Shown: positions 3,856 to 60,959, numbered from the stretch's first letter. The stretch: DNA of 64,000 nt from an uncultured Verrucomicrobiota bacterium (GCA_964393515.1 CAYMTY010000006.1:38334-102333), one strand, 5' to 3'. The notes: generated by a model not told the origin, from the sequence alone. Numbers and translations: made by a program.

Positions 3856-5172
3856 TCACAGTTGCCGCCAGCGCGCCGCCGGCGCCAACAGCGGCGGCAC
3901 CCGGCCGGTCGGCGCGACATGCGGCGACGCCGATTCGACCCGGAACCAGAGGTGCCGGGCCCCGACCCCTACCGGCTGGAATTTCTCCAGCAGCACCACG
4001 TTGCAGTAGTAGGCGCCCGTGGCCAGCGGCAGCGCCCCCAGGGAGCAGCGAAACCGGCTGGTTCCCGCCGGGAGTGCCAGGGCGGTTTCCGCATCGGACC
4101 GGCACAGGCACAGGAAGACGCCCAGATGGGAATACAGGCCGATGTGCACGGCGAAATGCGCGAACGGCCGGGCGGCGGCCACTTCGAGTTCGAACTCCAG
4201 TTCTTTCCCGTCCTGGTAGATTTCGGAAACCGCGCGGCCGGCATCGCACAGACAGAAGCGGCGCAGCGCCAGCGCGCCGCCGCTCAAATCCCGGTATTCG
4301 TCCCCCGCCCCTTCGACGTGGCCGTCGAGATAGGCTTCGATGCAGGCGGCGGGCGGGCCCTGCTGGACGATGCGGCCGGCTTCCAGCCGCAGGGCCCGGG
4401 TGCAGAGCCGTTCCACGGCCGCCATGTTGTGACTCACAAACAGCACGGTCCGGCCGTGGCTGACCACGTCCTGGATCTTGCCGATGCACTTCTGCTGGAA
4501 TTCGGCGTCGCCCACCGCCAGCACCTCGTCCACGATGAGGATGTCGGGCTCGAGGTGGGCGGCCACGGCGAAGCCCAGGCGCACGACCATGCCGCTGGAG
4601 TAGCGCTTGACGGGCGTGTCGAGAAAGCGGGCGCAGCCGGAGAATTCGACGATTTCGTCCAGCTTGCCCCGGATTTCGGTCCGGGTCATGCCCAGGATCG
4701 CGCCATTGAGGTAAATGTTCTCGCGTCCGGTCAGGTCGGGATGGAACCCGGTGCCGACCTCGAGCAGGCTGGCGATCCGGCCGTCGATGCGGACTTCGCC
4801 CGCGGTGGGCGCCGTCACGCGGCTGAGGATTTTCAGCAGGGTGCTCTTGCCGGCGCCGTTGCGGCCGATGATGCCCAGCACCTCCCCCTGCCGGACCTCG
4901 AACTGGATGTTCCGCAAGGCCCAGACGTAGTCGGAGGAGAGGGCGGAGGGCGGAGAGCTGAAACCTGAAGCGATCGATGTTTCAGCTTTCAGTCTTCCGC
5001 CTTCCGCCCTCTGGTCCCGGATGTTCGCCTGGGTGACCTTGAGATAGGGATCGGGCCGGCCGCGGACCCGGTGCCACCAGCGGTTCAGGTCGTGGGACAG
5101 CGTACCGGTGGAAACCTCCCCCAGCCGGTATTGTTTGGAGAGGTTTTCGACCTGGATGATGACAGAACTCAT
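3856..5172 (-). CDS. wzt: ABC transporter ATP-binding protein for polysaccharide/O-antigen export (Wzt/TagH-like), with a C-terminal carbohydrate-binding extension.
   Basis: Walker A GIIGRNGAGKSTLL, signature YSSGMVVRLGFAVA and Walker B ILIVDEVLAVGD are present. There is a roughly 190-aa C-terminal extension of the kind seen in Wzt. Confidence 0.85.
   Translation of the reverse strand: MSSVIIQVENLSKQYRLGEVSTGTLSHDLNRWWHRVRGRPDPYLKVTQANIRDQRAEGGRLKAETSIASGFSSPPSALSSDYVWALRNIQFEVRQGEVLGIIGRNGAGKSTLLKILSRVTAPTAGEVRIDGRIASLLEVGTGFHPDLTGRENIYLNGAILGMTRTEIRGKLDEIVEFSGCARFLDTPVKRYSSGMVVRLGFAVAAHLEPDILIVDEVLAVGDAEFQQKCIGKIQDVVSHGRTVLFVSHNMAAVERLCTRALRLEAGRIVQQGPPAACIEAYLDGHVEGAGDEYRDLSGGALALRRFCLCDAGRAVSEIYQDGKELEFELEVAAARPFAHFAVHIGLYSHLGVFLCLCRSDAETALALPAGTSRFRCSLGALPLATGAYYCNVVLLEKFQPVGVGARHLWFRVESASPHVAPTGRVPPLLAPAARWRQL
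4935..5012. repeat. 78-bp imperfect palindrome (hairpin) embedded in-frame within wzt.
   Basis: GAGAGGGCGGAGGGCGGAGAGCTGAAACCTGAAGCGATCG is mirrored by CGATGTTTCAGCTTTCAGTCTTCCGCCTTCCGCCCTCTGG at about 85% arm complementarity. It encodes the linker ...AETSIASGFSSPPSALSS.... It shares the CTGAAAGCTGAAAG core with the cassette-1 inverted repeats. Confidence 0.6.
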
Positions 5173-5205
5173 GAGGGATGAGGGCTGAAAGCTGAAAGGT
5201 GAAGT
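5173..5205. repeat. Left inverted repeat of IVS-like cassette 1. It abuts the wzt start codon.
   Basis: GAGGGATGAGGGCTGAAAGCTGAAAGGTGAAG is matched at about 85% by the reverse complement of 5598-5634. Confidence 0.55.
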
Positions 5206-5222
5206 TGACTGAGAAACAACAT

Positions 5223-5590
5223 CTATTTTGCCTTAACCTTCTTGGCCATGGTTACGAATATGGCGATCAATTCATTGGATTCGTGCAGGAGCAACTCCAG
5301 ATTCGGCAAGGTGATTCCGCATTCCTCGCGCAGCAGTTCCAGCCATAACATGGACTCATCCGCCTCTTGTGTGCATAGCTCGATCTTGGCGACAAACTCG
5401 GCATCACTTCGCGCACGGGATGCCTCGCGATAGTTGGCTGCGACGGATGTGCCGGAACGCAGTGTTGCTTGCCCAGTATTTGAACTTCCGGCCGATTCTT
5501 GGGCAAGGTGCAATAAAGCCAGATCACCTTGGCCGCATACTGCTTGGTCCGGAGGCGAAAAGCCTCTTTCTTAGCCTCATATTCCGACAT
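5223..5590 (-). pseudogene. Four-helix-bundle protein (23S rRNA intervening-sequence protein family, TIGR02436/PF05635-like). The gene is disrupted by a 1-nt frameshift.
   Basis: The N-terminal half MSEYEAKKEAFRLRTKQYAAKVIWLYCTLPKNRPEVQILGKQ is in one frame (ORF 5267..5590). The C-terminal half ...GQATLRSGTSVAANYREASRARSDAEFVAKIELCTQ... is in another (ORF 5223..5513). Together they reconstruct the family hallmark L.SQ.RRAA.S...NI.EG. Local GC is low. Confidence 0.6.
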
Positions 5591-5597
5591 CAGCAGT

Positions 5598-5634
5598 TTC
5601 CTCAGCTTTCACCTTTCAGCCCTCAGCCCTCTAT
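5598..5634. repeat. Right inverted repeat of IVS-like cassette 1. It overlaps the wzm stop codon.
   Basis: The reverse complement AGAGGGCTGAGGGCTGAAAGGTGAAAGCTGAGGAAA matches the 5173-5205 repeat. Confidence 0.55.
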
Positions 5635-6545
5635 ACGGTATCCATGAAGGTCCGTTCCACGCGATTGAAGATGGCCACACCGGCCAGGAGCGCGACCACA
5701 GCAAAGGCGGCGCTGTAGGCCAGCAGGCCCCAGGAGAAAGTTCCCTGCCCGAGGAAGCCCAGGCGGAAGGTCTCCACGACGGGGGTCATGGGATTGATCA
5801 GGAGAAACCAGCGCCATTTCGCCGGGATGGCGGCCAGCGGATAGACCACCGGGGCGGCATACATCAGCAGGCGTACGCCGAACTCGAGCAGGAAGCGCAG
5901 GTCGCGGTACTTGGTGGTCAGCGAGCTGAACAGGATGCCCAGGCCCAGGGCCTGGGCGGCCATCAGGAGCACCAGCCCGGGAAACAGCCAAACCGCCCAG
6001 GTCAGTTCGATGTGCGCCCCGCGCCAGGCATACCAGGCCCAGAAGCACAGGAAGAACAGGAACTGCAGGATGAATTTCAACAGATGGGAGAGCGCGAGGG
6101 ACAGCGGCACGGCCAGCCGGGGAAAATACACCTTGCCGAACAGGTGCGCGTTGCCGATGAAGGTGTTGGCCGTCGCGGTGAGCACATTGGCGAAGTACAT
6201 CCAGACCACGTTGCCGCTCAGGTAAAACAGCATGCGCGGCAGGCCGTCGGTGCTCAATTTGGCGATGCTGCTGAACACGACGATGAAAATCAGCGTGGTC
6301 AGGAGCGGCTGGATCACGAACCAGGCCGGCCCGAGGATGGTCTGCTTGAACTGGGCCACGAAATCCCGGCGGACGAACATCGCCACCAGGTCCCGGTACC
6401 GCCAGAGATCGGTCAGGTGCAGGTCGAACCAGCGCACGCGCGGCCGCAGGACCAGCTGCCAGCGATGGTCCGCCGGCATGGGCGTCAGCGGTATCCCGGC
6501 CGGTGAAACGTCCCCGGCGGTTCCGGCAGCGGGAGCGGGATTCAT
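5631..6545 (-). CDS. wzm: ABC-2 type polysaccharide export permease (Wzm-like).
   Basis: Six hydrophobic segments. The ABC-2 fold is indicated by FVRRDFVAQFKQTILGPAWFVIQPLL and LFGKVYFPRLAVPL. Start was chosen at MNPAPAAG, where the ATGA overlaps the upstream stop. Confidence 0.8.
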   Translation of the reverse strand: MNPAPAAGTAGDVSPAGIPLTPMPADHRWQLVLRPRVRWFDLHLTDLWRYRDLVAMFVRRDFVAQFKQTILGPAWFVIQPLLTTLIFIVVFSSIAKLSTDGLPRMLFYLSGNVVWMYFANVLTATANTFIGNAHLFGKVYFPRLAVPLSLALSHLLKFILQFLFFLCFWAWYAWRGAHIELTWAVWLFPGLVLLMAAQALGLGILFSSLTTKYRDLRFLLEFGVRLLMYAAPVVYPLAAIPAKWRWFLLINPMTPVVETFRLGFLGQGTFSWGLLAYSAAFAVVALLAGVAIFNRVERTFMDTV

Positions 6546-7849
6546 GCCGCCGCCCGCCCTTCCTCCGCGGCGGGGCGGGTACCGGCCCACAGGCCGGCCC
6601 AGGCCGCCGCCAGCACAGCGATCAGCGGCATGCGCAAGGGAAAATCAATCAGGCTGTGCAGGCCCAGGGCGGCCAGGCCGAAGCCCAGCGCGCGCCGTTC
6701 GAGGCCGGCAAAGGAAGGGATTTCCATTCTGGGCGGGCCGCCGGATTTCCGGGCGGACAGCGCCAGGCCTGCGGCCAGCAGAGTCCAGAGCCCGCCCAGC
6801 AAGCCGAATTCGGACAGGAACTGGACGGGTTCGCAATGCGCATGCAGGACCATGCGTCCGGCGTTGACCGGCGCCGCATAATAGGGATGCACGATGGAAA
6901 ACGTGCCCGGCCCCGTGCCCCACAGCGGCGCCTCCTGCCAGGCCTTCAGGGTTTCGGCCAGGATGCCGCCGCGGAAATGCCATTCGCGCAGGAAAGCGGC
7001 GGGTTGGCGCCAGCTCCGGGCCAGGGTGACCGCCGCCCAGCCGATCAGGCCGGCCGCGGCCAGCCAGGCCAGCGCCCGGGCCGGCCGCGATCTCGGCGCT
7101 CCGGCGAAGGGATGCTGGCGGACCACCTGGCGGCAGAGGAGCACGTGGGCCGGCACCAGCAGCGCCAGCACCGCCACGCCTGCACGCGACCGGGAGGCCA
7201 CCACGGACGCAGCCAGCACCACGGCCCCCAGCAGCAGCAAGCCCGCTGGACTGGAAGGCCGCCCCGCCTGCACGGCGCTGAACCGGGCGCGGGCCGCCAG
7301 GGCCAGCGCCACCGGCAGGACCAGGTTCGCAAACGCGGCGAAATGGTTTTCATTCACGAAAATGCCGGTGTATTCGTAGATGGGAAAGCGCCGGGGCTCG
7401 AGCCGCTGGGCCAGCACCAGCAAGGCCATGGCGACAGCGCCCAGAACCACCGCCAGCAGCGCACCGCGGATTTGCCGCCCGGAAAGCTGGAACGCCAGGG
7501 CATAGGCGCCCAGCATGGCGGTCGCCACGCCCAACGCCGCCCAGGTCTCCGACGGACAAGCCGAACCCGGCAGGAAGCGCACATGGCCAACCGGCAGCAG
7601 GCCGGCGGCAGCCGTCCATTGGTGGGTGGCATTCCCGGCATAGAGCGCCACCAGCCCCAGCCCGGCAGCCGCGGCCAGCCCAATGCGTCCCCGGCAAGTG
7701 CCGCAGGCCAGGCCTGCGGCCAGCGCCCCCCCCCCCAGCGCCGGCAGCAGCCAGGCGCCCCAGGCCGGCGCCGCAAACGGCACCACCGCGGACGCGCCCA
7801 GCAACAACAGGAGCAGCGCCCCGAACCATGGACAACGGTCGGCTTTCAT
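6542..7849 (-). CDS. O-antigen ligase / Wzy_C family polytopic membrane protein.
   Basis: Multiple TM helices and a periplasmic loop carrying the Wzy_C-like stretch NENHFAAFANLVLPVALALAA. The ATGA start overlaps the wzc stop. Confidence 0.6.
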   Translation of the reverse strand: MKADRCPWFGALLLLLLGASAVVPFAAPAWGAWLLPALGGGALAAGLACGTCRGRIGLAAAAGLGLVALYAGNATHQWTAAAGLLPVGHVRFLPGSACPSETWAALGVATAMLGAYALAFQLSGRQIRGALLAVVLGAVAMALLVLAQRLEPRRFPIYEYTGIFVNENHFAAFANLVLPVALALAARARFSAVQAGRPSSPAGLLLLGAVVLAASVVASRSRAGVAVLALLVPAHVLLCRQVVRQHPFAGAPRSRPARALAWLAAAGLIGWAAVTLARSWRQPAAFLREWHFRGGILAETLKAWQEAPLWGTGPGTFSIVHPYYAAPVNAGRMVLHAHCEPVQFLSEFGLLGGLWTLLAAGLALSARKSGGPPRMEIPSFAGLERRALGFGLAALGLHSLIDFPLRMPLIAVLAAAWAGLWAGTRPAAEEGRAAA

Positions 7850-14444: not shown

Positions 14445-14882
14445 ATGTCCGATTCCCGGGAAATCGTCGAAAGCCTGCTCCAGCAGCACACGACCGTTAC
14501 CTTCCAGGCCCAGGGCCTTAGCATGACACCCGCCATCCGCGCCGGCGACCTGGTCCATGTCCGGCCGGCCGCAGGCCCGGATCTGCGCCGGGGCAGCGTC
14601 GTTCTGTACCGGAACCATGGCCGCCTGATCCTGCACCGGCTGGTGGCCTGCGACCGCCAGGCCGCCCGCGTGCGAACGGCCGCGGATGCCGCGCTGGCCG
14701 GCGGCGACTGGATCCCCGTCGCGGACATTCTGGGCGTGGCCGAATCGGTCCGCCATGGCGACCGGCTCCAGCGCCTGGACACGGCGCCGGCCCGACTGGC
14801 CGGCCTGCTGCGCTATGCCCTGCGGCCGCTGCGCCGCTTGGCAATCGCCCTGAATCGCCGTTTGAAACCACTGGTCCTGTAG
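14445..14882 (+). CDS. Small soluble S24/S26-family serine peptidase-like protein (signal-peptidase/LexA-like fold). It appears to be of the Ser/His type.
   Basis: GLSMTPAIRAGDLVHV carries the nucleophile motif. The position normally occupied by the KR(V/L) general base reads RLILHRLVA, as in S26B/SEC11-type enzymes. No N-terminal TM helix. Confidence 0.55.
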   Translation: MSDSREIVESLLQQHTTVTFQAQGLSMTPAIRAGDLVHVRPAAGPDLRRGSVVLYRNHGRLILHRLVACDRQAARVRTAADAALAGGDWIPVADILGVAESVRHGDRLQRLDTAPARLAGLLRYALRPLRRLAIALNRRLKPLVL

Positions 14883-14936
14883 GGGCTCAGCTTGCTGAGC
14901 CCGGGATCTAGGCTGAGCAAGCTCAGCCCCTACAAG
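14883..14936. terminator. Twin GC-rich hairpins between convergent genes. Candidate bidirectional terminator.
   Basis: GGGGCTCAGCttGCTGAGCCC and GGCTGAGCaaGCTCAGCCC lie immediately after the TAG of the S24-like gene, 50 bp before the HprK-like gene stop. There is no U-tract. Confidence 0.35.
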
Positions 14937-17474: not shown

Positions 17475-20400
17475 TTATAAAAGCCGTAGACAATACAAAA
17501 TCTGGGCCTGCGGAAGCGTGGGCGTGCCGATTCCCCCGTTCCGCTGGATGATGGCGCCGTTCGTGGACTTCAGGACCAGCCACTTGCCGGAGCCGGGGAA
17601 GAAAACCGCCAAATCGGCCTTGCCATCCCCGTCATAGTCCGCCGGCACTGGTACGGGATTCTTCTCCTGCGTGCCGAATCTCGCCGTGCGATTGCCGCCG
17701 GTGCTGTTTGCGATGGTCCACGTGGCGGTCTTGCGGGCGAATACGGCAAGATCCGCCTGGCCGTCGCCGTCGTAATCCGCCGGCACCGGCAGCGCGGCGC
17801 CGCCGCCCAGCGTTTTTTGCACCGGCTGGCCGTCGGACGAGCGCAGAATGTGCCATCGGCCGCCGGCGGTTGCATGCATCGCCAGGTCGGTCCGGCCGTC
17901 GCCGTCGTAATCCGCCGGCACCGGCACCATGCCCGGCAGGCCGAAGGCCACGTGCCATTCGGCCCCGCCGCCGCTGGGCCGAACCTGCCACCGGGAGTTC
18001 GCGCGGTGGTACACGGCGGGATCCCCGATGCCATCGCCGTCGTAATCGCCCGGAACCGGGCACGCCGCGGCCGCTGGCCCCAGCTTCACCACGCGGTCCT
18101 TGCCGCCCGCGGACGGCCGGATATGCCAGTTGCCCGACGACGGCTGGAAGACGGCCAGATCTGTCATCCCATCGCCATCGTAATCCGCGACCGCCGGCAG
18201 CGTCAGGGACGTGCCAAACCGGAGTGCCCGCAGGCCCAGCGAACTGCGCGACTGGAACCAGAACCGGAACTTGAGGCCGTAGCGGGAGAAGTCTGCCAAT
18301 CCGTCGCCGTCGAAATCGTGCAGCTGGCCGAACGGCCCCCGGGGCCACCAGAGCACCTGGTCCAACCAGCCCGCATCAGCGCCCTTGGCGCCACGGCGGT
18401 CCTTGGCGTACTCCCAGCGCAACGTCGCCGCCCCTGGAATCCTCCAGGATTTCCACTGCCAACCGCTTTCGCCGGAAATGGCCGCCTTGGGTGCGCCGTT
18501 GATCCACAGCCGCAGGACATCCTGGTTCGGCTGCGAAGAGGCCTTCCACCAGAAGCTGATCCAGCCCGGACCGGTCATCGTTGTCTCCAGCCAGCTCCGC
18601 TGGCCATGGCCGATGGCCCCGCTCTGCAGCGCTTCCACCCCGTCGTAGGTTGTGTGGGACTGGCTGAACCACGGCGCGCTGCCGCCCGTGGTCCACGTCA
18701 ATCCCGGCGCGTTCAAGGCCGCGTCCCGGTCCGCGCTGTAGGAATGGAACCGGGCCGAGTAGGCCGCACCATCGGCCGGCACCCTGATCGTGCGCGGATT
18801 CTCGAGGCTGCCGTCGCTCCAGCCGGTGAAGGCCCAGCCCGGGTTCGGGGCGGCGGAAATCCGCACCTGCGTTCCCTGATCATAGGTGCCGCCGCCCGCC
18901 ACAGTCCCGCCCGCGGCCGGATCGGCCGTCACTTCCACCACCGCGGTCAACCGCCGGAAGGTTGCCGTGTAGGTCCGGCCGCCGGCCGGCACCATGATCA
19001 TGCGCGGATTGGCCAGTTCGCCGTCGGTCCAGCCGGTGAATTCCCAGTTGGAGGCAGCCTCCGCGGTAAGTTTCACGAGCTCACCCACGCCGCAGGTGCC
19101 CCCGCCAGCGACGGTGCCGCCTTCAGGCGGGTCGGCCGCCACGGAAACCTGCGCCAGCTGCCGCTGGAACAGGGCGGTGTAGGCCATGCCGCCATGGGTG
19201 ACCGTGACCGTCCGCGGATTGCGTGTAACTCCATCGCTCCAGCCTGCGAAATCCCAATGGTTGCTCGTCGTGGCCGTCAAGGTGGCCCGCGCGCCGGAAG
19301 GATAGACGCCGCCGCCGCCGGCCGTGCCGCCTTCCGGCGGCTGGCTGTTCACCGTGAGCACCAGGGCCTGCCGGTCCGTGTTGCCCGCGATCTTCAGGGC
19401 CGGATCGCCGAGCAGGTTGTAGACCGCCAGCGTGTCCCGCGAGATGAATTCGGTTTGCACGGCGCGGCGCGCCTGCAGGATGGCCAGGCCCAGCCGGCCG
19501 CAGCCCTCCTGGAGCACGGCCCGGTAGAACGCCACGCCCAGGTCGCCGGCCGGCGCGTTGCGCGACAGGCCCGACGGACTCCATGCCGCCACCGCCCCGC
19601 CCGTCGCCCGCTGCAGCAGCACCTCGCCGAGGTTGTCCACGCCTGGCATCTCGAACCGCCCCGCCAGGCAGGTCAGGGCCACCGCCACCGGCTTGCGGGC
19701 GTTGGCCATGACATGGACATCCGTGTCCTTCAGCAGGTTCTTGGCGCTCCAGTTCTTGGCGCCGCCATGGCCCGTGAAGTGAACGAAGCCCACGCCGGCC
19801 TTGAACCAGTTGGACAACGACATGCGCGCCGCGGCGATCGCCGTGGTGTCCAGATTGATCCGCGCCGCCAGCGGATGCGCCGTGTCCTTCAGGGCCGCAA
19901 TGCGGTCATTGACCTTCATGAAACTGCCGGCGGCATCGTCCGCGGTGTCGGTGGCCAGCACCAGTTGGTTCTGCCAGTCCGCACCGAACTCGGTCTCGAA
20001 GGCTTTGATTTTCGCGATCATTGCCGCCAGGTCCGCGGCGTTCCGCGCCGGCAGACGCCCAAGGGCCACATCCGGCAGTGCGTCGCCGTCCGCGTCCGCG
20101 AACAGGCCGTCGGCGGCGAAGAGCCCCTCCATCGTCGCCAGCAGCAGCGGCGGCAGATGGTTCACTTCGTTGCTCTTCACCCCGAGGTAGTCGTAGTGGC
20201 CGTTGCCGGCCAGCACCACCATCCACGGAGCCTCGGTCCAGGTTGTTTGGGCATAGGCCAGCAGTTCGGGAATCGCTTCGGGTGTCCGCAGTCCACCCGT
20301 CAGCAGGTCGCAGACATCTTCGAACACCGCCACGCCCGAGCGCAGCCCCTGCCCGGCCCGGTAGTCCGAAAGTTCCTGCGCCGTCTCCGCCAGCGCCCGC

Positions 20401-23400
20401 GAGGCCACGACGAGATAATCAATCCGGTTGTCCGCCGCGAGGAACCACGCGTCCGCCGCCGCCGCCTCGGGCGCTAGCAACGGCAGTTCCGCGGTCTCCA
20501 CCAGCGCGAACCGCTCGCCGTTGGCCGCGGCCCACGTCTTGTCGGACAGCGCGCCGCTTTCGTCCGCAATCCACGCCGGCACGCCGTCATCATCCAAAGC
20601 CACCGCCAGCGGCGCGGCAAATGCCGCCGCCGAAACACCCGCGCCGTCCGTGCGGAAGTGGACCGTCCCCGCCCCGGGATCCAGCCGCCGGTTGTACGCC
20701 GCCGTGAACCCGTCCACCACGAAGTAGCTGTACAGGCCGGCCGCCGGCAGCGCGCCGCGCACCGTCAGCGTGTTGGCGCCGGCCATCGCCACGCCCTCTG
20801 GAATCGTCAGGGTCGCCGTTGCGGCTTTCTGATCGTCGAATTCGAGCGCGCCGAGGGCCACGCCATTCACGAAGAACTCCGCCCGGTGGTCCGGAGTCCG
20901 GTCCGTCCGCGTCCAGCCCAGCAGGTCCGCCGTGAGCGTCACCGGCCCGCCGGCATAACCGTTCAGGACGAACGGGAAATCCACCCGGTTCAAAGCCGGG
21001 TTCACCGAGGCGGTCACCATCTTCCAGTAGTACCAGTCCTCCGGCAGTTCGGTCATCGTCGCGTTGCCGATGCCCTGGTCCTCCTCGAACCGCACCTGCA
21101 CCGGGAACACCGTGCCGCCGGCCGCGGCCCCCGGTTCGCGCCGGGCCATCGGCAGGCCTTCGCCCGCTTCGATTAGAACCGCGTTGTCGCGCGCATACCA
21201 GTTGTCGGTCGGCTTCCCATGGAACACCATCCGGCCGTTCGCCGTGTCATAAATCACCGGCACGGGCGCGCCCTGTTCGGTGAAGGCCAGGCCGTTCTCT
21301 TCCGCCAGCGCCTGCACGTCTTCCCGCGCCAGCCCCATGCCGTCGGCGATGGCCTGCAGCGAAACGCCGTAGAGCCCTTCCTGCTTGAACAGTACTTTCA
21401 GCACCGGCGATGGTCCCGCGAGTTTCTTGGGCGCGACGTCCCGCGGCGCGGCCTTGGCCGCCCGCGCGGTCCGCGGGGCGGGCGGCGGAGGGACAAACTG
21501 GATTTCGTGCGTGCCGTGGTCCACCGTGCCGCCCGTCAGCTCCGCCTCTTCCAGCCGGTACAGGCCGCGCCCGCCTGCGACCGCGGCCGGATCCGCCAGC
21601 GTGTACTCCGCCCCGTCCTCCTGCAGCGCCGACGGCACCAGTTCCGCGTTCAGCCGGGTTTCCTCGCCCGTGTCGGGATCCACCCGGTACACGCAGAAGC
21701 CCGCCGTGTCGAACTCAGACGACGTCCGCCAGGCGACCTGGCCGGCCTCCCCGCGCCATTCGCCCCACACTTCCGCCAATTCCGCCCGGGTGGAACCCAG
21801 CGGCCCCAGTCCCAGGTCCAGCGTCAGATTCGTCTGCGCGCCGGCCAGGACGAAGTTCGTGGTCCAGGCATAGCCTCCGACTCCGCCGTTCACCGCATCG
21901 CTGTCCAGCGCGGTGTCGCCGCCCTGCAGGGCGGGCGACAGGGCCGTATAATTGGTGTCGAGGCCGCTCAGGTCGAACCGGATGTAGTACGTCCCCGGCA
22001 CGATGTTGGCGAACAGGTAGGCCCCCTCCGCGGTGGTCACCATCGAGGTCACCACCATCCCGTTTGTGTTCATCAGCGCCACCGGCACGTCCGGGATGCC
22101 GTTGGTCTCCCCCGAATCCTGGATGCCGTCGCCATTGACATCGAACCAGACCCGGTCGCCGACCGTGGCCCCGCCCTTGGGCACGATCACCACCGCGCTG
22201 ACGTCGTTCGACGGCACCGGATCGTAGAGGTCGCGCGCCGTGACGGCCGCCGAATTCGTGATGCGCTTCCCGCCCGTGCCTTCGTAGACCGTCACGTTGA
22301 AATACAGCGTCGTGGAAGCGCCCACCGCCAGCGAGCCGACGCTCCAGATGCCCGAAACCGGGTTGTAGGTTCCGTTCGAATGGCTGTTGTACTGCACATC
22401 GGCAGGCAGCACGTCCGTAAGTTCCAGGCCTGTTGCCGTGTCCGGACCGTTGTTCGTCGCCACCACCCAGTAGTCGATGATCGCGGTCTGGTCCGGTTCG
22501 GTCTCCGTCACGAACTTCGTCACGCCCACGTCGGCGTACTGCACGCAGTTGGTGACCGACGACTGAGTCGCCGGCTGCACGGAGCTGTAGGCGCTGGCGG
22601 TGTTCAGAATCTGGGTTACCGCAGAAGGCGAATCGACGGTGGCCTGGAAGGTGATGGTGACGGTCGCCCCGGTGTCCAGAACGCCGCCGGTCCAAAGGTT
22701 CGGCGGCGCGCCGAGCGCGCCCGAGGTGGCCTGGGAGGTGTCGTAGGACAGAACGATGCGCCCGGCCGCGCCCGCCCCGCCGGTGCGGGTGCCCGAGCCG
22801 GTACGGAGACCGCCGCCACCGCCGCCGCCCGGCGCGTTGCCGGCGGTGCCGTTGCCTTGGGTGCCGCTGCGGCCATTGCCGCCGGCGCCGCCGCCGGCGG
22901 GCGCCGCCGCGCCCGTCTGGTTGGCCGCGTTGTTGCCGGCCGCACCGGTGCCGGCGGAAGAGCCGCCGCCGCCGCCGTAGGAGGTGCCTGACCCGTTCGC
23001 GCCGTTGCCGCCGGCGTAAAGCGTATCGCCGATGCCCGTGGCCGCCGAACCGCCCGCCGCTCCCGTCGCGCTGTTGTTGACGCCGCCGCTGCCGCCGCGC
23101 GCCAGCACGCCCGTCGTCGAACCCAGGCTGAACCACGAATCGCCGCCGGCCGTGTTCGCCGCGCCGCTTGCGCCGACGTTCACGACGTAGTTGCTGCCGG
23201 GCAACACGGCCACGGCCGCGCGGCTGTAGGCGCCGCCGCCCCCGCCGCCGCCGCCGCCGTTGGAGGTGCGCGTCGCGCCGCCGCCGCCCCCGCCCCACGC
23301 CTGGACCGTGGCCGACGTGATGCCCGCGGGCACCGTGAACGTGGTCGAGGCGTTGTTGGTCAGCGTCACCACGCCGCCCGTCGGGTTGTAGAACGTGGCG

Positions 23401-26400
23401 CGGACGCTGTCGGCAACGTAGGTGACGCCCGGCGGCAGGACGTCCTCCAGCGCGATGCCGGTCTGCGCCACGGTGCCGGTGTTCTGGACCACGATGGTAT
23501 ACGTGTTCGTGGCGCCCGGCGCGAGACACGCTCCGGCGGACGACGTCTTCGTCGCCGTCAGGCCGTACACCGCGGCGACGTAGCCCGCGTCGCGGGAGTC
23601 GTCCGCGGTTCCGGGCGGCAGGTAGAACGGCGCCGTGCGGCCCGTGACCGGGGAGGCATCGCTGTCGAACGCGTCGTTGCCGCCCTGATCCTGCGGGGCG
23701 AACGTGAAGCCCGTCGGCAACGAATAGCCGACGAAATACGTGCTCGCCATCAAATTGGTGAAGGCATACGCCCCGGCCGACGACGACGTCGTCACGCCCA
23801 CCACGTTCGACGATGCGTCGTAGAGCGTCACCACGACGTCCGGCATGCCGGTTTCCCCGCCGTCCTGCACGCCGTCGCCGTCCGCGTCGTTCCAGACGAA
23901 ATCGCCGATGGAAGACGGCGGCTGGTAATAGCCCGCGTCGCGGGTCGTGTCGTTCGTGCCGCCGCTCAAGGCGAAGACCGCCGTCCGGCCCGTGTTCGTC
24001 GAGATGTCGCTGTCCAGCGCGTCGTCGCCGCCCTGGTCCTGCGCCGTGGGCAGGAAATTCGTCGGCGTGACGAATTCGAGGAAGTACGAGCCCGACGGCA
24101 GGTTGGTGAAGGCATAGGCGCCGGCCACGCCCGAGGTCGTCGCCGCCAGCAGGTTCGAGGCCGCATCGTAGACCCGCACCACAACGCCCGTCAACCCGGC
24201 CTCGCCGCCGTCTTGCACGCCGTCGCCGTCGACGTCGAACCAGACGAAATCGCCGACCGCGTTGGCCACCGACACGTTGGTGACGGACGCGGACTGCGGC
24301 GGGGTCTGGTTGTTGGTGGTGGTGGCCGTATTGACGAATTGCGTCGCGGCCAACGGGAAATCGAGCGTGGCTTGGAACGTGATGGTGATCCAGGCGCCGG
24401 TGGACAGACTGCCGTTGGTCCACAAATTGGGCGGTGCGCCGAGCGTGCCGGAAATCGCGCCGCTCGTGTCGTAGGCCACGACCACGCGGCCCGCGGCGCC
24501 GTCGCCGCCCACGGCCGATCCTTCGCCTTCCCCGCCGCCGCCGCCGCCCGGGGCATTGCCGTTTAGACCAGGCTGGCCGTTGTTGCCGCCGTTGCCGCCG
24601 GCTCCGGTTCCGGTGCCGCCCGTGCCGCCCAGCGCGGCTCCGCCCGCGCCGCCGGCGTTGCCGTTGGCGTTCGTGAAGGCGGATCCGCCGCCGCCGCCGC
24701 CGCCGGCCGTGCCGCGAAGTCCGCCGGCGCCGCCCGAATACCTCGTGGTGCCGATGCTGGCGGCCGCGGAACCGGCCGCGCCCGCCGTGTTGTCGGCCGG
24801 CGCTCCGCCGCCGCCGGCGGCCAGCACGTTGGTGGTCGCGCCCAGCGAGAAATAGGAACTGCCGCCGTTCTGTCCCGGATCGGCCGCCGCGCCGCCCGTG
24901 CCCACGACCACGTTGTACGTCGATCCGGGAACGACCGTGACGGTCGACTCGGCGAAAGCCCCGCCGCCGCCGCCCGAGCGGCGCGTGGTGTTGCCGGTCT
25001 CGCGGGCACCGCCGCCGCCCCCCCACGCGCGCACCGTCAGGGACGTGATGCCCGCCGGCACGGTGAAGGTCGTCGTCGAATCGTTGGTCGCAGACACGAG
25101 TCCGCCCGCCGGATTGGAGGACGTGGCGGTGACGCTTCCCGGCACGTAGGTCGTCCCCGCGGGCAACGGGTCGCTCAACCGGATGCCCGTCAGCGCCACC
25201 GTGCCCGTGTTCTGGAGGGTGATGGTGTAGGTGTTCGTCTCGCCGTAGTTCCAGTTGCCGGCCAGGCTGCTCGTCTTGGTGAACAGCAGGCCGGGCGTGC
25301 CAACGGCTTCGTTGGTGACGCTCGACGCCAGCGGAATCTGCTGGTCGCTCCACAGCGTCGCCACGTTGACGAACTCGATGGCCTCCAGCGGATCGTTGAC
25401 CTGCACCTCCACTTTCACGGTCATGTTGGTGCCGGGCGGCAGGGCGTAGCCGTCGAGCAGCAGCGGCGGCGGCGGCAGCGCGTTGGTGGCGCTTGTCGCC
25501 GAGGCCGCGATGCGGACGTTGTCCAGCCAGACGTAGTCGGTCGCGGTGCGATTGGCCGAGCCCGCGAACCGGATCACCGTGCCCGTCGAGGCATAGGCGG
25601 AGACGTTGAAGGAGGCGGAGAAATACGAGCCGTCGTTGGTCGCCCCGCCCACCTGCCCCACCTGCGTGAAGGTGCTCCCGCCGTTGGAGGAAACGGAAAC
25701 GTTGACGTAATCGTCGGCTTCCAGACCAACGCGGCGGTAGTCGAACCACAGCGTGGCGTTCGTGTAGCCCGCCAGGTTCGCTTCGCGCTGGATGCCGTCG
25801 GTCGTGGCCGTCCGCAAGGCATAAGTCTGGCCCGGGATCGAATCGCCGTCCACCGCGATTTGGACGTTGCCCGCCGTCGGGCTGTCGTCGTCGGCGATTT
25901 CCGTCCAGGGGCCGGTCCAGGCCACGTTGCCGTCGCTGTTCGTGTACGCCTGCAAATCGAACCGGTCCAGGAATTCGTTGGTGTGCGGGAAGGGCCGGAT
26001 CAGTTGGGCGGAAACGAACGTCATGCCGAGCGGCAGCGCGTCCTCCAGGTGTATTCCCGTCTGCGCCAGCGTGCCTCTGTTGGAAACCACGATCGTATAG
26101 ACCAGGTTCGTGCCCGCCGCCAGGTAGTTGGTCGTGCCCGAGGTTTTCTGGAACACGAGATCGGCAATGGCATTGATCTGGTTCGTCACCGAACCCGCAT
26201 CTCGGTTCTGATCGGACCGCAGGCTGGCGACGTTGACCACCTGCGTCGCCACGGGCGGCTGGTCCACGGTGACGTCGTAGGTCATCGTAATCGTCCCCCC
26301 CGGCGGCAGGGTCAGGTTCTGCGCGATCAACGGCGGCGACTCGCCCAGGAACGTGGCGTTGCTGCCGGCCAGCGTGAAGGCCACGTTGTCGAACCACACG

Positions 26401-29015: not shown

Positions 29016-29034
29016 GGTCGTGGACTCTCTCAAT

Positions 29035-32841: not shown

Positions 32842-35800
32842 TTACAACTCCGGCCGGATTTCGATCACGCGCGGCGCCGGGGCTTCCGCCCCTTCGTCCG
32901 CAAACAACAGCCAGACGTAGCGGACGGCCACCGGTTCCGCCCCCTCCGGCCAGGCATCCCAGACAACGCCTTCCCGGCTGACCAGGATCTGGAGATTGGT
33001 CGCCGAGCCTTCCGCCAATTCGACCACGAGATTGGTCATGTGCAGCAGGGCATCATAGCCCACGGCGATATATCCGCCGCCCGCACCGGCCGGGCCTTCC
33101 CAGGCGGTGTCCGCATCCTGGTCCACGGCGGTCCAGCCGTTGGTGTGTTCCGGGCTGTCGGTGCTCGTCACCACCGTCAGCGGGAACGGTTCCGGAACCG
33201 CGCCGGCCCCGGAGGCGGCGGCGCGCGGCCGGACCGCCCGCCGCGCCGGCGGAGGGGCCGGCCGTTCGCCATACACTTCCAGTTCGCAGATCAACACGCT
33301 CTCGTTGGCCGAGTTCGACAAGCCCGTGAACTTCACGTAGCGCAGCGCCGGGTTGGACACCGCCCAGTCGTCCCAGCCCTGGTGGTCCTCCCCGCTGGCA
33401 TCCGCCAGCAGCGTCCAGTCCGTGCCGTTCGCTGAGGACTCGAGCCGGTAGCGGTGGACGCGGTACGTCCAGTCCCAGTTCCGCAGCCGCACCCGGGACA
33501 CGCTGGCGGTGCATTGCAGATCCAGCAGCATGTAGCCCGGCGGCTCGTTCGTCCACGACGTGTGCCCGTAGTTGGCACTCGTGCCATGCACCCCGTCGAT
33601 CACCAGGTCCGGCCGGCTGGCCTTGAAGCCCGTGATGGTGGCTCCGCCCGCGGCCAGCGCCAGATTTTCGGACAGGTCGTCGTCCAGCGTCCGGACGGTC
33701 AGGTACTGATCGTCCCGTCCCGCCGCCGAGACCCGGATCGTCGCCGTCTCGCTGGCCGCGTTTTCGTCGGCCGGCGCCGTCAGCACCACCGCTTGCCACG
33801 TGTCCCAGTTCGCCGCGTTGAAAATCCGGGTGCCTCCGGCGGAGACCGCGATGTTGGTGTCGCCGTCGCTCCAGGCCACGGTGAACACCACCGGCTCCGC
33901 CGGCGCCATGTCCAATCGCAGGTAGACCCGGTCCGTGCCGTCTTCCCGCACGAGGACCTCCGCCTTCGAAAACAAGACCTGCGGCACGGGCGGCGTTTCG
34001 TACACTTCCAGTTCGCAGATCACCACGCTCTCGTTCGCCGAGTTCGACAAGCCCGTGAATTTCACGTAGCGCAGCGCCGGGTTGGACACCGCCCAGTCGT
34101 CCCAGCCCTGGTGGTCCTCCCCGCTGGCATCCGCCAGCAGCGTCCAGTCCGTGCCGTTCGCTGAGGACTCGAGCCGGTAGCGGTGGACGCGGTACGTCCA
34201 GTCCCAGTTCCGCAGCCGCACCCGGGACACGCTGGCGGTGCATTGCAGATCCAGCAGCATGTAGCCCGGCGGCTCGTTCGTCCACGACGTGTGCCCGTAG
34301 TTGGCACTCGTGCCATGCACCCCGTCGATCACCAGGTCCGGCCGGCTGGCCTTGAAGCCCGTGATGGTGGCTCCGCCCGCGGCCAGCGCCAGATTTTCGG
34401 ACAGGTCGTCGTCCAGCGTCCGGACGGTCAGGTACTGATCGTCCCGTCCCGCCGCCGAGACCCGGATCGTCGCCGTCTCGCTGGCCGCGTTTTCGTCGGC
34501 CGGCGCCGTCAGCACCACCGCTTGCCACGTGTCCCAGTTCGTCGGGTTGAACACCCGGGTGCCCCCGGCGGAGACCGCGATGTTAGTGTCGCCGCCGCTC
34601 CAGGCCACGGTGAACACCACCGGCCCCAGCGGCGCCATGTCCAAACGCAGGTAGACCCGGTCTGAGCCGTCTTCCCGCACATGGATGTTCGTCTTCGAGA
34701 AGACCGCCTGCGGCAACGGCACCAGAGTCCGCTCTCCGTAGACCTCCAGTTCGCAGAGCAGTACGCTTTCGTTCGCCGAGTTCGACAGACCCGTGAACTT
34801 CAGGTACCGCATCGGCTGGTTGGACACCGCCCAGTCGTCCCAGCCCTGGCGGTCCTCGCCGCTGGCATCCGCCAGCAGCGTCCAGTCCGCCCCGTTCAAC
34901 GAGGATTCGAGCCGGTAGCGGTGGACCCGGTACGTCCAGTCCCAGTTCCGCAGCCGCACCTGGGATACGGTGGCCAGTCCGTTGAAATTCAGCGTCATGG
35001 TTCCCGGCGGTTCGTTCGTCCACGACGTGTGCCCGTAGTTGGCACTCGTCCCATGGATCCCGTCGATCACCTGCTCCGGCCGGCTGGCCTTGTAACCTGT
35101 GATGGTGGTTCCCCCCATCGCCAGGGCCAGGTTTTCGGCCAGGTCATCGTCCAGCGTCCGGGCCGTCAGGTACTGATCGGCCCAGCCCGGCGCCGAGACC
35201 CGGATCGTCGCCGTCTCGCTGGCCGCGTTTTCGTCGGCCGGCGCCGTCAGCACCACCGCTTGCCACGTGTCCCAGTTCGCCGCGTTGAAAATCCGGGTGC
35301 CTCCGGCGGAGACCGCGATGTTGGTGTCGCCGCCGCTCCAGGCCACGGTGAACACCACCGGCTCCGCCGGCGCCATGTCTAAACGCAGGTAGACCCGGTC
35401 CGTACCGTCTTCCCGCACGAGGACCTCCGCCTTCGAAAACAAGATCTGGGGCGGGGCAGGCGCTGGGGAAAGCACTTCGAACGTGCGGACAATCGGTTCC
35501 GCAGGCTCCCAGTTGCCGGTACCCGCTTGTGAAGCCGTAACGCTCACCGTGCCTGTTCCGGTGAATGAAAGCAGTGCGTCTGCGAGCACGGCCGGACCCG
35601 CAGCCACCGCATAGGTCACCGGCAACCCGCTGGACGCCGTCGCCGCCAGCACGACCTGTGCGGTGGAGATCTGCGTCCCCGGATTCGGGAAATCAATGGT
35701 CTGGCTCGCCTGCGCCACCACCAGCAGGCCTGTTGCGGACCCTTCGTAGTTCGCGTCGTCCACCGCGGCGACAACGGCATAGCTGCCCGCCGCCACCGGC

Positions 35801-38800
35801 GGCTCGGCCAGGCCGCCATACGTGATATTCACAGTCAGGCCCGTCGGCGTGGTGGTGGCCGTCGCGCTCTTCGGCACGCCATCATAGGTCTGCTCCAGGT
35901 CGCTCAACTGCACCGTTGCCGCCGCCTTGGACCACGGGGTTCCATACACCTCCCATTCCGCCAGCCGCACCACGGATTCCGCGGAGTTGGACAAACCGGC
36001 AAACCGCAGGTAGCGGGCAACTCCACCGCCCAGCCACTCGTCCCAGCCAAGGTGGTCCTCTTGGCTGGCATCCGCCACCAGCAACCAGTTTTGGCCATCG
36101 CGCGAACCGTCAATGCGGTACCGTTGCGGGCGGTTTGTCCAGGCGGGATTCAACACCCAGATGCGCGCCAAGGTCACGGTCGTCTGCAAGTCCAGCGTCA
36201 ATGTCCCGGGCGGCGCGGCGGTCCAAATGGTCGCGGCCCCGTTGACGCCTGAGGTATGCACACCATCAATGGCCTGCAGCGCGTTGGACGCCTGGACGCC
36301 GGTGATCGTGGCGCCCCCCGCGGCCAGCGCCAGGTTTGAACCGGCATCGTCATCCAAAGTGGTTGTGGCAAAATACACATCCGAGAGATTGGAGCCCGAA
36401 ACCCGGAAGATCGCGGCTTCGTTGACCCCGTTGGTGTCGGCGGTGGCCTCCAGCGTCACCACCTGGTATACGTTCCAGTTCCAAGGCCGGAAGGTCAGGG
36501 TCGCCCCGCTCTTGACGGTCAGGTTCGTACTGCCCGCGACACGGGTCACGCTGATCGTCAGGTTTCCGGAGCTGCGCAGCCGGACATGGAGCCGGCCCTC
36601 GCCGGCCTCCCGCACCAGCAAGGCCTGCGCGCTCAATTCGGGAGTGGGCTTGTTATAGGCCACCTGGCAGGAGCGGACGACGGGGTCCGCCGCCTCCCAG
36701 TATGCGGATCCGGCCTGCGTGGCCACGATGGAAACCGTCCCGGTTCCGAGAAACCACAGGTTGGTCTCCTCCACAATGACGCCCGGGCCCGATTCCACTG
36801 CAAAGGACACCGGCAGGCCGCTGGAGGCTGTCGCCGCCAGCCGCACCACGTTGGTCGCCCATTGGTCGGCCAGCGGCGGAAAATCGATCGTCTGAGATCC
36901 TTTCACGACCACCAGCGTGCCGGCCGCCACGCCCTCCCAGTTGACATCGTTCACCGTGCCCGTCACGGCGTACGTGCCGGGAACCACCGGCGCCTGTCCG
37001 CTGCCGTCGTAGGTGAAATTCACGGCCAAGCCACCCGGGTCGGTCGTGGCCGTAGCCATCCGGGGGGTGCCGTCATAGGCCTGGAACAGATTTTGGAGCG
37101 TCACTGTTGCGGCGGCCTTCGCCACCACCAGCGTCCCCGTCGCCCCACCTTCGTAATTGACCTCATCCACCGCGGCCGTCACGGCGTAGTTGCCCGCGTT
37201 GACCGGCGCGGTCGGCGATCCATTGTAGGTCACCGTGATCGTCAATCCGGTTGGCGCGGTCGTGGCATTCGCGCTCCGCGGCGTGCCGTCATAGATCTGC
37301 GCCAGGCCGTCCAGGACTACGCCGGCCGCGGCCTTGGCCACCACCAGCGTGCCCGTCGCGGCCCCATACCAGTTGGGATCCACGAGGGTGGCCACCACTT
37401 CGTAGGCACCGGCCGCCACCGGCGCACCGGGCAGCCCGTTGTAGGTGAGCGCCACGGCCAAGCCGGCGGGGACCGTCGTGGCCCAGGCGGATTTCGGCAT
37501 GCCGTCGTAGGTCTGCGCCAATCCGTCCAGGTTCACCGTGGCCGGTCCCGGGGCCACCACCAGCGTGCCCGTGGCCGTACCCTGGTGAAAGGCCGTCGCC
37601 ACCGTGGCGGTCACGGCATAGGTGCCGGCCTGGATCGGCGCGGCCACCTGGCCGTCGTAGGTGAACCGGACGGTCAGGCCGGCCGGCAGGGTCGTGGCGG
37701 TCACGGTGCGGCACGCGCCGTCGCACACCTGCTCGAGGTCCTGCAGGAACACCTGGGCCGGCACGGGCTCCGCATTGGTCGGATCGTTTCCCGCCAGCCG
37801 CAGCGCCGGGTCGCCCAGGAGATTGTAGGTGGCGAATGTCGGCCAGGTGAACATGTTGCCCGGCAGCGCCCGCCGCGCCAGCAAGGTGGCCCGGCCCAGC
37901 GGGCCGGCCTGCTCCTGCAGCATCGTCTGGTAGATTTTCGCGCCCAAATCCGTGGCCGGGGAATTGAGCGGCATCGCGGAGGAAGCGAACACCGTCACCG
38001 CGCCGCCTTGCGGGCGCTGCAGGAGCGCTTCGGCCACGCAATTCACCGCCGGGGCATCGAAATAGCCCGCCAGGCAGCAGAGTGCCACCACGACCGGCGT
38101 GCGGCTGTTGGTCAGTGTTCCGATGTCCGTTGTGGTCAGCAGCCCCTGCGTGGCCAGCTTGGTGCTGGTGCCATGCCCGCTGTAACTGACCATGCCCGCC
38201 CCCGCATCGAAGGCGGAAAAGAGTGCGGCGCGCGCGGGGGTGATGGCCGTCGTATCCAGGTCGATGCGGGTGGACACGACCCAGGGCTCCTGGACCAGAT
38301 TCGTAAACACCGCGACCGATGCGGCAAAATTGCCGGCGGCATCCGCCTTGTCGTTCGCAAAACCCAGCTGGTTCTGCCAGGCGGCGCCGTTGTCCGCTTC
38401 GTAGGCCTGGATCTTCGCGATCATCGCGGCCAGGTCCGCCGCATCGCGTGCGGGCAGCCGGCCCACCGCCACGTCCGGCAGGTCATCGCCGCCGGCGTCC
38501 GCCAGCAGTTCGTCGGAGGAAAACAGCCCGTCGTAGGTCTGGCGCAGAATGGGTGGCAGGTGGTTGGCCTCGAACCCCATGCTGTCGAGGATGTCGTAAT
38601 GGCCGTCGCCCGCCAGCACCATCATTTGCGGGGATTCCGCCCAGGTCGTCGCCGCCCGGCGCACCAGGGCGGGGATCGCTTCCGGCGTGCGCAGCCCGCC
38701 CGCCAACAGGTCGCAGAGGTCCTCGAACACGGCCACGCCCGTACGCAGGCCCTGCCCTGCGCGGTAGTCCGCCAGCGCCTGCGCGGTCGGCTCCAGGGCG

Positions 38801-40305: not shown

Positions 40306-40339
40306 GACTTCATCTCTCACGCCCCGCCGGCGCAAGCCT

Positions 40340-60670: not shown

Positions 60671-60959
60671 CCGCCCCCCGCCGCTTCCAACGGCCGGACG
60701 ATCCCCGGTGTGCCCCGGCATCGTCTCCGCCCGCCCCCCCACCGGTGTCCGTGCCGATCACCCGCGCGGGGGCCGGACGCGTCCCGGCGCCAGCCAGCCC
60801 ACACCCGCAATCGCGGGCGTTCCGCGGCCCCGGCAGCTGGCTTTCTTCCGGCGGCGGCGCGCAGAACGCCTGCGGCATACGGACGGCGGCCGCTGCCGCC
60901 GCCAATCCACCCCCAACATGACAACCGAACAATCCGGAGCCGCCGCCTTGCTGGCATGG

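Follow-up and report, generated by a model that had tools for sequence, protein, structure and literature searches.

The segment that separates wzm from wzt in this uncultured Verrucomicrobiota bacterium is probably a decaying, horizontally spread palindromic cassette of the intervening-sequence (IVS) type, i.e. a non-ribosomal copy of an element like those found in 23S rRNA, with a stem that is a probable substrate of RNase III. We hold this reading with somewhat better than even confidence. The cassette has inserted precisely where wzm stops and wzt starts, in an operon for ABC export of polysaccharide. Its family is large, foreign in composition and spread across phyla, and a cargo-less derivative of its arms sits in frame in wzt. 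An adaptive uncoupling of wzm from wzt by the cassette is not supported.

Layout of the cassette

The cassette and both flanking genes are all on the minus strand of the window, by which we mean the whole stretch of 64,000 nucleotides that was analyzed (coordinates are given in Table 1). The gap between wzm and wzt is 458 nt and the cassette has a length of about 460 bp (462): the stop codon TAG of wzm occupies 5633-5631, the ATG of wzt 5172-5170, and the cassette arms abut both. Read along the sense strand, wzm ends with GUA UAG, which is directly followed by AGGGCU GAGGGCU GAAAGGU GAAAGCU GAGGAAACUGCUG and the AUG of a four-helix-bundle (4HB) ORF. At the other end the order is the UAG of this ORF, an 18-nt spacer and CUUCACCUUUCAGCUUUCAGCCCUCAUCCCUC, which runs straight into the AUG of wzt; the last heptamer of the 3' arm, CCCUCAU, together with the next G provides this AUG.

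Table 1. Cassette, flanking genes and in-gene hairpin, in window coordinates
Feature	Position	Strand	Description
wzm	5631-6545	minus	ABC-2 permease, PF01061; upstream flank; final codons ...TFMDTV, then stop
5' arm (sense)	5599..5633	minus	UAG-AGGGCU GAGGGCU GAAAGGU GAAAGCU GAGGA; includes wzm stop codon
Four-helix-bundle gene, here a pseudogene	5223..5590	minus	PF05635 / TIGR02436
Spacer, ORF stop to 3' arm	5205..5222	minus	18 nt; fast-evolving
3' arm (sense)	5173..5204	minus	CUUCACCUUUCAGCUUUCAGCCCUCAUCCCUC; pyrimidine-rich, without stop codons
wzt	3856-5172	minus	ABC ATPase, PF00005 + Wzt_C; downstream flank; harbours in-frame hairpin
Cargo-less hairpin	4933..5017	minus	in wzt; 37-nt arms, 11-nt loop, dG -53.7, z -7.8

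The initial annotation of this DNA described a low-GC segment of roughly 460 bp lying exactly between the wzm stop and the wzt start and flanked by imperfect inverted repeats. Both statements hold. GC content is 0.52 for 5205-5601 compared to 0.676 for the whole window, and the arms are flush with the two genes. The plus-strand sequence GAGGGATGAGGGCTGAAAGCTGAAAGGTGAAG is located at 5173-5204, and the inverted partner of 5173-5202 is found at 5602-5631 (30 nt, 90% complementary, 399 nt apart); the stem that the arms can form has 33 pairs. When the 24-nt core of the arm was searched for in the 64 kb, three overlapping positions were matched, all within the two arms, while shuffles expect 0.00. 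The arms are arrays of 7-nt units (GAGGGNN twice and GAAAGNN twice) and not unique sequence. As read from the sequence, 25 nt of the 5' arm suffice to place a TGA stop in each of the three frames, and GAGGA at 5603-5599, located 10-13 nt before the cargo ATG, resembles a Shine-Dalgarno (SD) motif for the 4HB ORF. A search of 4500-6200 against Rfam (E up to 1) returned no family, only sub-threshold matches to miRNA-like hairpins, and a scan of the cassette for sigma-70 promoters and terminators returned no sites.

A four-helix-bundle gene in decay

The cassette had been said to carry a gene of the TIGR02436/PF05635 type. The family assignment was correct: the reading frame inside the cassette matches PF05635 (E 3.3e-9, 37.3 bits, cut-off 33.8), and the repaired frame matches TIGR02436 with 63.1 bits (cut-off 24). 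An intact frame, though, is not there, and what remains is a pseudogene. The ORF has 368 nt compared to 369 in its orthologue, owing to a 1-nt deletion in codon 43, at about 5463/5464. The first 42 codons and the last 80 codons are in different frames, and gene callers give only a 42-aa fragment. If one T is restored, alignment with the orthologue yields KQLLRSGTSV, the family consensus. The deletion is real for this population: it is shared by six independently assembled metagenome contigs, from separate sequencing runs, which show 100% identity with the window along stretches of as much as 15 kb. The dN/dS ratio of the cargo gene against the intact orthologue (locus L126) is 0.096, that of wzm 0.18 and that of wzt 0.22. 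The low cargo value means that the protein was functional until recently. The cassette is decaying here, its gene carrying a recent 1-nt deletion.

The AF2 model of the intact orthologue (P0001) has a pLDDT of 96.8 and four confident helices. Its Foldseek neighbours are 2rld (BT_0352), with a TM of 0.8, 2gsc (Xcc0516), and the Avd structures 4dwl and 8ub7, with a TM of about 0.7 at a sequence identity of about 11%. In a profile search of the PDB, 2rld was matched at 4.5e-22. The repaired cargo protein has 7,731 homologues, the best 120 of which are 66-79% identical to it; few of these 120 carry a source name, and the sources that are named include Desulfonatronum, Deltaproteobacteria, Lentisphaerae, Binatia, Bacteroidia and Verrucomicrobiae. 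Neither PADLOC (anti-phage defence) nor PHROG models matched the cargo. A scan of IMG/VR gave no relative, and among INPHARED phages there was one weak match.

Stem and arm conservation

Prediction of RNA folding had been proposed as a check on the segment, the suggestion being that its interpretation should be given up if no long-range stem is favoured. Such a stem is strongly favoured, so the interpretation survives on this point. The stem is present in both the MFE and the centroid folds (z -3.8) and has 33 pairs with a mean pair probability of 0.96. The arm duplex amounts to -51.3 kcal/mol, keeping the 5' arm unpaired costs 40.8 kcal/mol, and the pairing is retained when a 731-nt context is folded. 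There are three internal mismatches and the longest perfect run is 13 bp, which makes the stem less regular than that of Coxiella. We consider the stem a probable RNase III substrate. An alternative pairing of the cassette arms with the hairpin in wzt, to which they are 77-84% complementary, is not favoured in the 731-nt fold.

In comparison with the orthologous copy in L126, 4-5 of 67 arm positions differ (~6-7%), while 6 of 15 differ in the spacer (40%) and pS of the ORF is 0.58. Therefore, the arm sequence is constrained. Among orthologous cassettes we found no compensatory changes: the copies are too similar, the outer part of the 3' arm drifts and the internal mismatches are kept. Conservation of the arms could thus have its cause at the level of DNA or in protein binding, and not in the RNA stem. 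Over 46 cassette arm pairs, mismatches of the G.U type number 79 and those of the A.C type 84, i.e. there is no sense-strand bias, and we see in these alignments no evidence that an RNA helix of the sense strand would be specifically selected.

One junction, several occupants

A comparison of genomes that have or lack the insertion had also been recommended. In it the junction is found empty, with the same cassette or with unrelated cassettes. Seven related junctions, the window included, were picked by Wzt similarity alone. Two of them hold this cassette, one an unrelated 4HB cassette, two hold GxxExxY cassettes and two are empty. The second holder of the window's cassette is L126 (variants L223 and L224; Wzm and Wzt 80% and 80% identical to those of the window), where it is nucleotide-alignable and has an intact gene of 122 aa. 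In L217 (Wzm/Wzt 89/86%) the cassette is unrelated, with a 4HB protein 57% identical to ours and arms of 8-nt GAAAAGCT units. L219 (79/74%) has a TIGR04256 GxxExxY / PF13366 gene within 29-nt arms of CAGAA units, and in L227 (Wzt 53%) another TIGR04256 GxxExxY cassette, whose arms are similar, follows a leftover half-arm made up of GCTGAAA units. The GxxExxY proteins of these two cassettes are of the PD-(D/E)XK type. The empty junctions are those of L218 (82/85%), which reads GTG TGA cgag ATG with a gap of 4 nt, and L220 (72/70%), with an ATGA overlap. Two more wzm-4HB-wzt arrangements, JGI 3300072015 and L222, come from distant hosts and surfaced because the contig that encodes the cargo also encodes Wzt. 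The first TGAGGGA unit of L222 provides the stop codon of wzm. At every occupied junction the cassette begins where the sense codons of wzm end. When occupied and empty junctions are compared by eye, which covers only three independent events, no duplication of the target site can be seen.

Presence and absence, together with replacement of the cargo at one and the same site, is the mark of an insertion, not of a feature that the operon has had since its ancestor. The history of the cargo does not follow that of its hosts. For the 4HB protein of the window, identity is 80% with the L126 protein and 74% with the L222 protein (host Wzt 53%), but only 57% with the protein of L217 (host Wzt 86%), which is the nearest relative by host. 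In all four genomes GC3 of the cargo is 0.55-0.69 compared to 0.81-0.88 for the flanking wzm and wzt, so that by composition the cargo genes are foreign. A transposase is not recognisable, and copies that are nearly identical were not found at different loci; it is from presence/absence and phylogenetic incongruence, and only from these, that we infer mobility of the cassette.

A second hairpin inside wzt

The heptamer family of the cassette recurs within wzt, where a hairpin without cargo (Table 1) has arms 81% identical to those of the cassette. It sits in the Wzt linker, in frame, and is translated as RAEGGRLKAETSIASGFSSPPSALSS. Two of its units have CGGA in place of CTGA and the two remaining TGAs are in unused frames; wzt stays open. 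Six related wzt genes were retrieved as DNA on the basis of Wzt similarity, and four of them (L126, L218, L219 and L220) lack the hairpin. Thus it has what is expected of a palindromic element, as the frame is kept and these orthologues lack it. In 70 kb of this genome there are only two hairpin copies. Judging from those Wzt homologues that are named, the organism may be Kiritimatiellia-like.

Lengthened linkers are common in this protein. Among 114 Wzt homologues the linker is short in 55 and at least 35 residues long in 50. In the long ones the first half is typically rich in K/E/A/G and the second half in S/F/P/L (examples are KAEKLKAE...SAFQHFSVSAFSS and GTTENTEG...). In all four cases where DNA is at hand (the window, L217, L222 and L227), the extra residues correspond to a heptamer or octamer palindrome, whose units resemble the junction arms, or a leftover arm, of the same contig. 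The hairpin in wzt was not part of the initial annotation, and neither were the minus-strand orientation, the frameshift and the heptamer arrays.

A family across phyla

Among the metagenome loci that encode this protein subfamily, 61 are non-redundant and have enough flank; in 44 of them, flanking inverted repeats scored above every shuffle. An earlier pass over 68 loci still included near-duplicates. The repeats are mostly TGARRNN heptamers with the purine arm upstream. In the 68-locus pass, a purine-rich heptamer arm (GAAACCT, GAGACCT, GAAAGCT or GAGGGAT) was upstream in 39 of the 49 repeat-flanked loci. The stop codon of the upstream co-directional ORF is between -40 and +12 nt from the arm in 17 of 32 loci, and in 8 of these 17 it is inside the arm. 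Cassettes of this architecture are found between T2SS genes in Desulfonatronum, after an HMGL-like gene in a Lentisphaerae MAG and, with 106-nt arms, in a Paceibacterota MAG. On a Chlorohelix plasmid the order is helicase, TGAAGGA TGAAGGA TGAGCGA TGAATTA, 4HB, inverted arm, N6-methylase. Carriers that can be cultured are Chlorohelix allophototropha (plasmid NZ_CP128401.1, 213.2-213.7 kb), Pseudanabaena galeata (pPg_04) and Desulfonatronum thioautotrophicum (KN882169.1). A 23S_rRNA_IVP gene was also found between csx2 and cas1. Conserved 16S/23S motifs are absent from all fetched loci, i.e. no rRNA-resident copy was found among them.

A degenerate pattern of the arm, which was derived from the window element so that the type of unit is fixed by construction and it is the number of hits that is informative, occurs at no fewer than 119 genomic places in many phyla, where ~0.5 would be expected (by arithmetic, assuming uniform composition). 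Most of these places are arrays without cargo, and about 30 have an inverted partner 30-270 nt off. A local iterative 4HB HMM run on the 119 loci gave one cassette only (L067). Other MAGs have several matches to the pattern each. An all-against-all BLAST of the solo arrays found no unique core shared beyond the repeats, so some of the arrays could arise in place by slippage.

Resemblance to known elements

The initial annotation called the segment rRNA-IVS-like. This label is supported, and better than could be told from the sequence alone: the sequence features of the Coxiella IVS (size, stem, S23p ORF and heptamers) are each matched in the window. The IVS in helix 45 of the 23S rRNA of Coxiella burnetii is 428-444 nt long, has a 28-bp terminal inverted-repeat stem and contains a decaying S23p ORF of the PF05635 family (PMC4990558). 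An AG-rich SD-like motif is followed by tandem GACAGAT heptamers, whose number varies between strains, and the stem is cut in its middle in vitro by RNase III of Coxiella or E. coli (PMC4990558). IVSs with S23p ORFs are also present in the 23S rRNA of Leptospira, Xanthomonas and Brucella (PMC4990558), and 23S_rRNA_IVP ORFs occur within rRNA insertions of CPR bacteria. The likeness covers size (428-444 vs 462 nt), a stem of ~28-33 bp, a looped-out PF05635 ORF, 5' tandem heptamers with an AG-rich SD-like motif, the tendency of the ORF to decay and the lack of a known mobility gene. In the window the heptamers GAGGGCT GAGGGCT GAAAGGT GAAAGCT stand directly before the cargo ATG, and GACAGAT is their Coxiella counterpart. 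The differences lie in the host, which is a polycistronic mRNA here and not a 23S rRNA helix (25 or 45), in the unit (GAGGGNN/GAAAGNN vs GACAGAT) and in the flanks, which here are a stop and a start codon. Excision by RNase III has been demonstrated for the Coxiella IVS, while for the window cassette we only infer it. Our literature search found no account of non-ribosomal (mRNA) cassettes of this type.

Several other small elements share parts of this design. MITEs of the Correia/ERIC type in Neisseria and Yersinia have inverted repeats that are co-transcribed with genes, and their stem is an RNase III substrate that alters the fate of the mRNA. They are not known to carry an ORF, their sequence is unique and conserved, they have a TA target duplication, and each is, as far as is known, confined to one genus. 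In contrast, the arms in the window are simple heptamer arrays, no duplication is visible and the family spans phyla. In REPIN/RAYT systems the RAYT is an IS200-like Y1 transposase that is usually single-copy. The likeness is that of a small gene amid its own palindromic repeats, with cargo-less hairpins of genome-specific sequence scattered about; the difference is that the cargo here is multi-copy and is either a four-helix bundle (TIGR02436) or a small PD-(D/E)XK protein (TIGR04256 in L219). The palindromic elements of Rickettsia are 100-150 bp long, have unique sequence, are known only from Rickettsia and lie in frame in protein genes. The palindrome in wzt likewise keeps the frame, is translated and lies in a protein loop that tolerates it, but it is a pure heptamer palindrome, and it is in 50 of 114 homologues that the Wzt linker is lengthened. 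Finally, Avd, BT_0352 and Xcc0516 share with the cargo a common four-helix-bundle fold and the Pfam family (PF05635 includes Avd, PMC10053308). Relatives with solved structures are pentamers and Avd binds structured RNA; unlike Avd, the window cassette has no reverse transcriptase partner beside it.

Alternative explanations

The initial annotation raised two possibilities: that the stem uncouples permease and ATPase expression, and that the segment is simply a mobile hairpin element. It is the latter that is better supported, given the empty sites, the unrelated cassettes and the foreign cargo. In its fullest form the former would make the cassette a host-adapted regulatory module which the operon needs. 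Selection would then have acted on the stem either as a site of processing or decay through RNase III, or as a gate on translation by which the Wzm:Wzt ratio is set. There is something to be said for it. The junction is strikingly often occupied (five of the seven chosen by Wzt similarity alone, and two distant cases), the stop codon and the start codon always adjoin the base of the stem, the arm sequence is conserved between the window and L126, and the start region of wzt is within the 3' arm. Yet the relatives L218 and L220 have compact empty junctions; the one site is taken by three types of cassette that are unrelated and differ in arms and cargo; the cargo is foreign in composition and is broken here; like cassettes are present in unrelated operons (T2SS, HMGL, helicase/methylase, csx2/cas1); and G.U mismatches are not in excess over A.C. 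Taken together, this makes a regulatory module unlikely. Less likely still is the presence of another kind of structural signal in the segment, such as an intrinsic terminator, a REP-like stabiliser of mRNA or a G-quadruplex formed by the GGG heptamers. Hairpins of REP elements in operons can stabilise the upstream mRNA, and GGG-containing heptamer repeats (GGGNATC) in Xanthomonas and Nostoc have been interpreted as G-quadruplexes. Against such signals, the cassette has no terminator-like site, neither hairpin is followed by a U-tract, the 5' arm has just two GGG runs and the arms are 399 nt apart. We consider this group of explanations very improbable.

It might also be that nothing transposes at all. 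Slippage-prone heptamer microsatellites could grow and become palindromic locally, the 4HB gene being an ordinary resident that attracts them. Heptamer repeats are over-represented in bacteria (PMC4692102), their number is variable between Coxiella strains (PMC4990558), the solo arrays have no unique core, and the in-ORF hairpins of four genomes each look like the arms of the cassette close by. In-situ growth would not account for whole cassettes, arms and cargo together, that are present or absent, or swapped for unrelated ones, at an otherwise conserved junction, nor for the foreign GC3 of the cargo or for cargo proteins that are 70-79% identical across phyla. We judge it improbable as an explanation of the whole, at odds clearly poorer than those of the regulatory module. 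Finally, the Avd-like fold (4dwl and 8ub7, TM about 0.7) and the membership of Avd in PF05635 (PMC10053308) bring to mind a remnant of a diversity-generating retroelement, with the 4HB protein as its Avd accessory factor. Such a remnant is most improbable: no RT is encoded among 19 Pfam-annotated neighbour genes over 21 kb, the element is only 460 bp long, its protein has about 11% sequence identity to Avd and stand-alone cassettes number in hundreds. A horizontally spread IVS-type cassette remains the reading that we prefer.

How the cassette might work

If the segment is an IVS-type cassette, the following sequence of events can be suggested. The transcript of the operon would read through the cassette. 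In vivo its arms would pair into a stem of ~33 bp, looping out the cargo and leaving the UAG of wzm and the AUG of wzt at the base of the helix. RNase III probably cuts the stem, as it does in the Coxiella IVS; this would separate the wzm and wzt messages, and the cargo RNA would be discarded. The 5' arm, with its TGAs and SD-like motif, may halt incoming ribosomes in every frame, and insertions might be tolerated at gene ends because of this. The insertion could then be described as transparent: three-frame stops and an SD motif are part of the 5' arm, the base of the helix brings the stop codon and the start codon together, and the arms would provide stop codons for genes entering from either side. 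As for the cargo, a protein of the pentamer type probably binds the repeat arms, in which case it would serve the element and not the host.

A broader reading

The data suggest that rRNA IVSs are one subset of a much wider and apparently mobile family. In a more ambitious form, which we put forward tentatively and would give somewhat less than an even chance as a whole, rRNA IVSs are the ribosomal subset of a very large, cross-phylum group of mobile "hairpin cassettes". These would consist of inverted arrays of 7-8-nt units around a small gene (an S23p 4HB or a GxxExxY PD-(D/E)XK), together with cargo-less derivatives. They would settle where an RNA helix loops them out harmlessly, namely in rRNA helices, at stop/start junctions and in protein linkers, and the wzm-wzt junction and the Wzt linker would be among their preferred targets. 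The 5' arm would act as a built-in array of three-frame stops and SD motif; since the stem juxtaposes the flanks, the insertion would be nearly invisible to translation. The arms would be recognised by the cargo proteins, which would drive the element or maintain it in a way not yet described.

Significance

The origin and purpose of rRNA IVSs, and of the S23p four-helix-bundle and GxxExxY proteins, have been open questions since the 1990s. In the papers that we found, the S23p-type protein is still termed functionally uncharacterised. This locus offers a comparative handle, as a single junction can be seen empty, with the same cassette carrying a gene under purifying selection, or with unrelated cassettes, and the architecture recurs in other phyla and in organisms that have been cultured. 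There are consequences for annotation as well. Small genes that appear to be associated with an operon, e.g. 23S_rRNA_IVP between csx2 and cas1, may be inserted cassettes, and translated hairpins may account for unusual linkers of low complexity in proteins like Wzt.

Palindromic inserts in the Wzt linker

The linker of Wzt is a hot spot for palindromic inserts. When it was measured as the stretch between DPYLKVT..R and DYVWAL in the Wzt homologues P0121-P0240, the linker of 50 of 114 was 35 residues or longer and resembled a translated palindrome, with a purine-coded half followed by a pyrimidine-coded half. The palindrome was confirmed on DNA for the window and for three relative loci, two with four-helix-bundle (4HB) cassettes (L217 and L222) and one with a GxxExxY cassette (L227). 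At the position of the window's hairpin, the orthologue in L126, where the same cassette carries an intact gene, reads RAGAEAGARA.

In L217, L222 and L227 alike, the in-ORF hairpin shares its unit type with the cassette arms, or with the leftover arm, at that locus's own wzm/wzt junction. These matching units suggest local copying or concerted evolution. Within the window, hairpin halves and cassette arms are 77-84% complementary (4938-4968 with 5602-5632; 4981-5011 with 5173-5203), and direct repeats between them are 81% identical. Alternative RNA pairing between arms and hairpin, or recombination between them, is possible; an alternative fold with such pairing was checked and is not favoured.

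Features in the window and in relative loci
Feature	Location	Strand	Context
Cargo-less heptamer hairpin, in-frame translation RAEGGRLKAETSIASGFSSPPSALSS	window 4933-5017	minus	inside wzt
Region with in-ORF hairpin	L217 3120-3300		
Region with in-ORF hairpin	L222 1930-2200		
Region with in-ORF hairpin	L227 780-990		
Orphan half-arm (GGAAAATGCTGAAACGCTGAAATGCTGAAACGG), then complete GxxExxY cassette	L227 109-180		3' of wzm stop
DUF433 / PIN-like (Mut7-C) toxin-antitoxin pair	L222 1038-1643	opposite	between 4HB cassette and wzt
4HB gene with repeat arrays	L225 (Pseudanabaena galeata pPg_04) 85265-85633		between csx2 and cas1
Unrelated perfect-looking palindrome, TGTAGGGGCTCAGCTTGCTGAGCC...GGCTGAGCAAGCTCAGCCCCTACA	window 14878-14934		
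Giant open reading frame, 3852 aa	window 17475-29033	minus	
Giant open reading frame, 2497 aa	window 32842-40335	minus	
Giant open reading frame, 3342 aa	window 50714-60742	minus	

Other insertions and neighbouring sequence

In L227, a single site seems to have taken insertions serially or to have had its cargo replaced. Because of its toxin-antitoxin pair, L222 has a second selfish module at the junction. Insertion of 4HB/repeat cassettes such as the one at the Pseudanabaena locus could explain the reported 'CRISPR-linked 23S rRNA IVP' (PMC10910872).

Between the window and L217, Wzm is 89% identical and Wzy 59% (window 6542-7849 compared); Wzy of L217 and L126 is 78% identical. Immediately upstream of wzm, the polysaccharide locus has a putative recombination breakpoint.

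Logan contigs extend 6 kb past the window start (window 1 is position 15172 of contig L001); these 6 kb contain additional glycosyltransferases and no further heptamer hairpins. The unrelated palindrome occurs once in the window, has 24-nt arms that are 92% complementary (dG about -54), is without a U-tract and is flanked by convergent S24-peptidase and ScmC-like genes.
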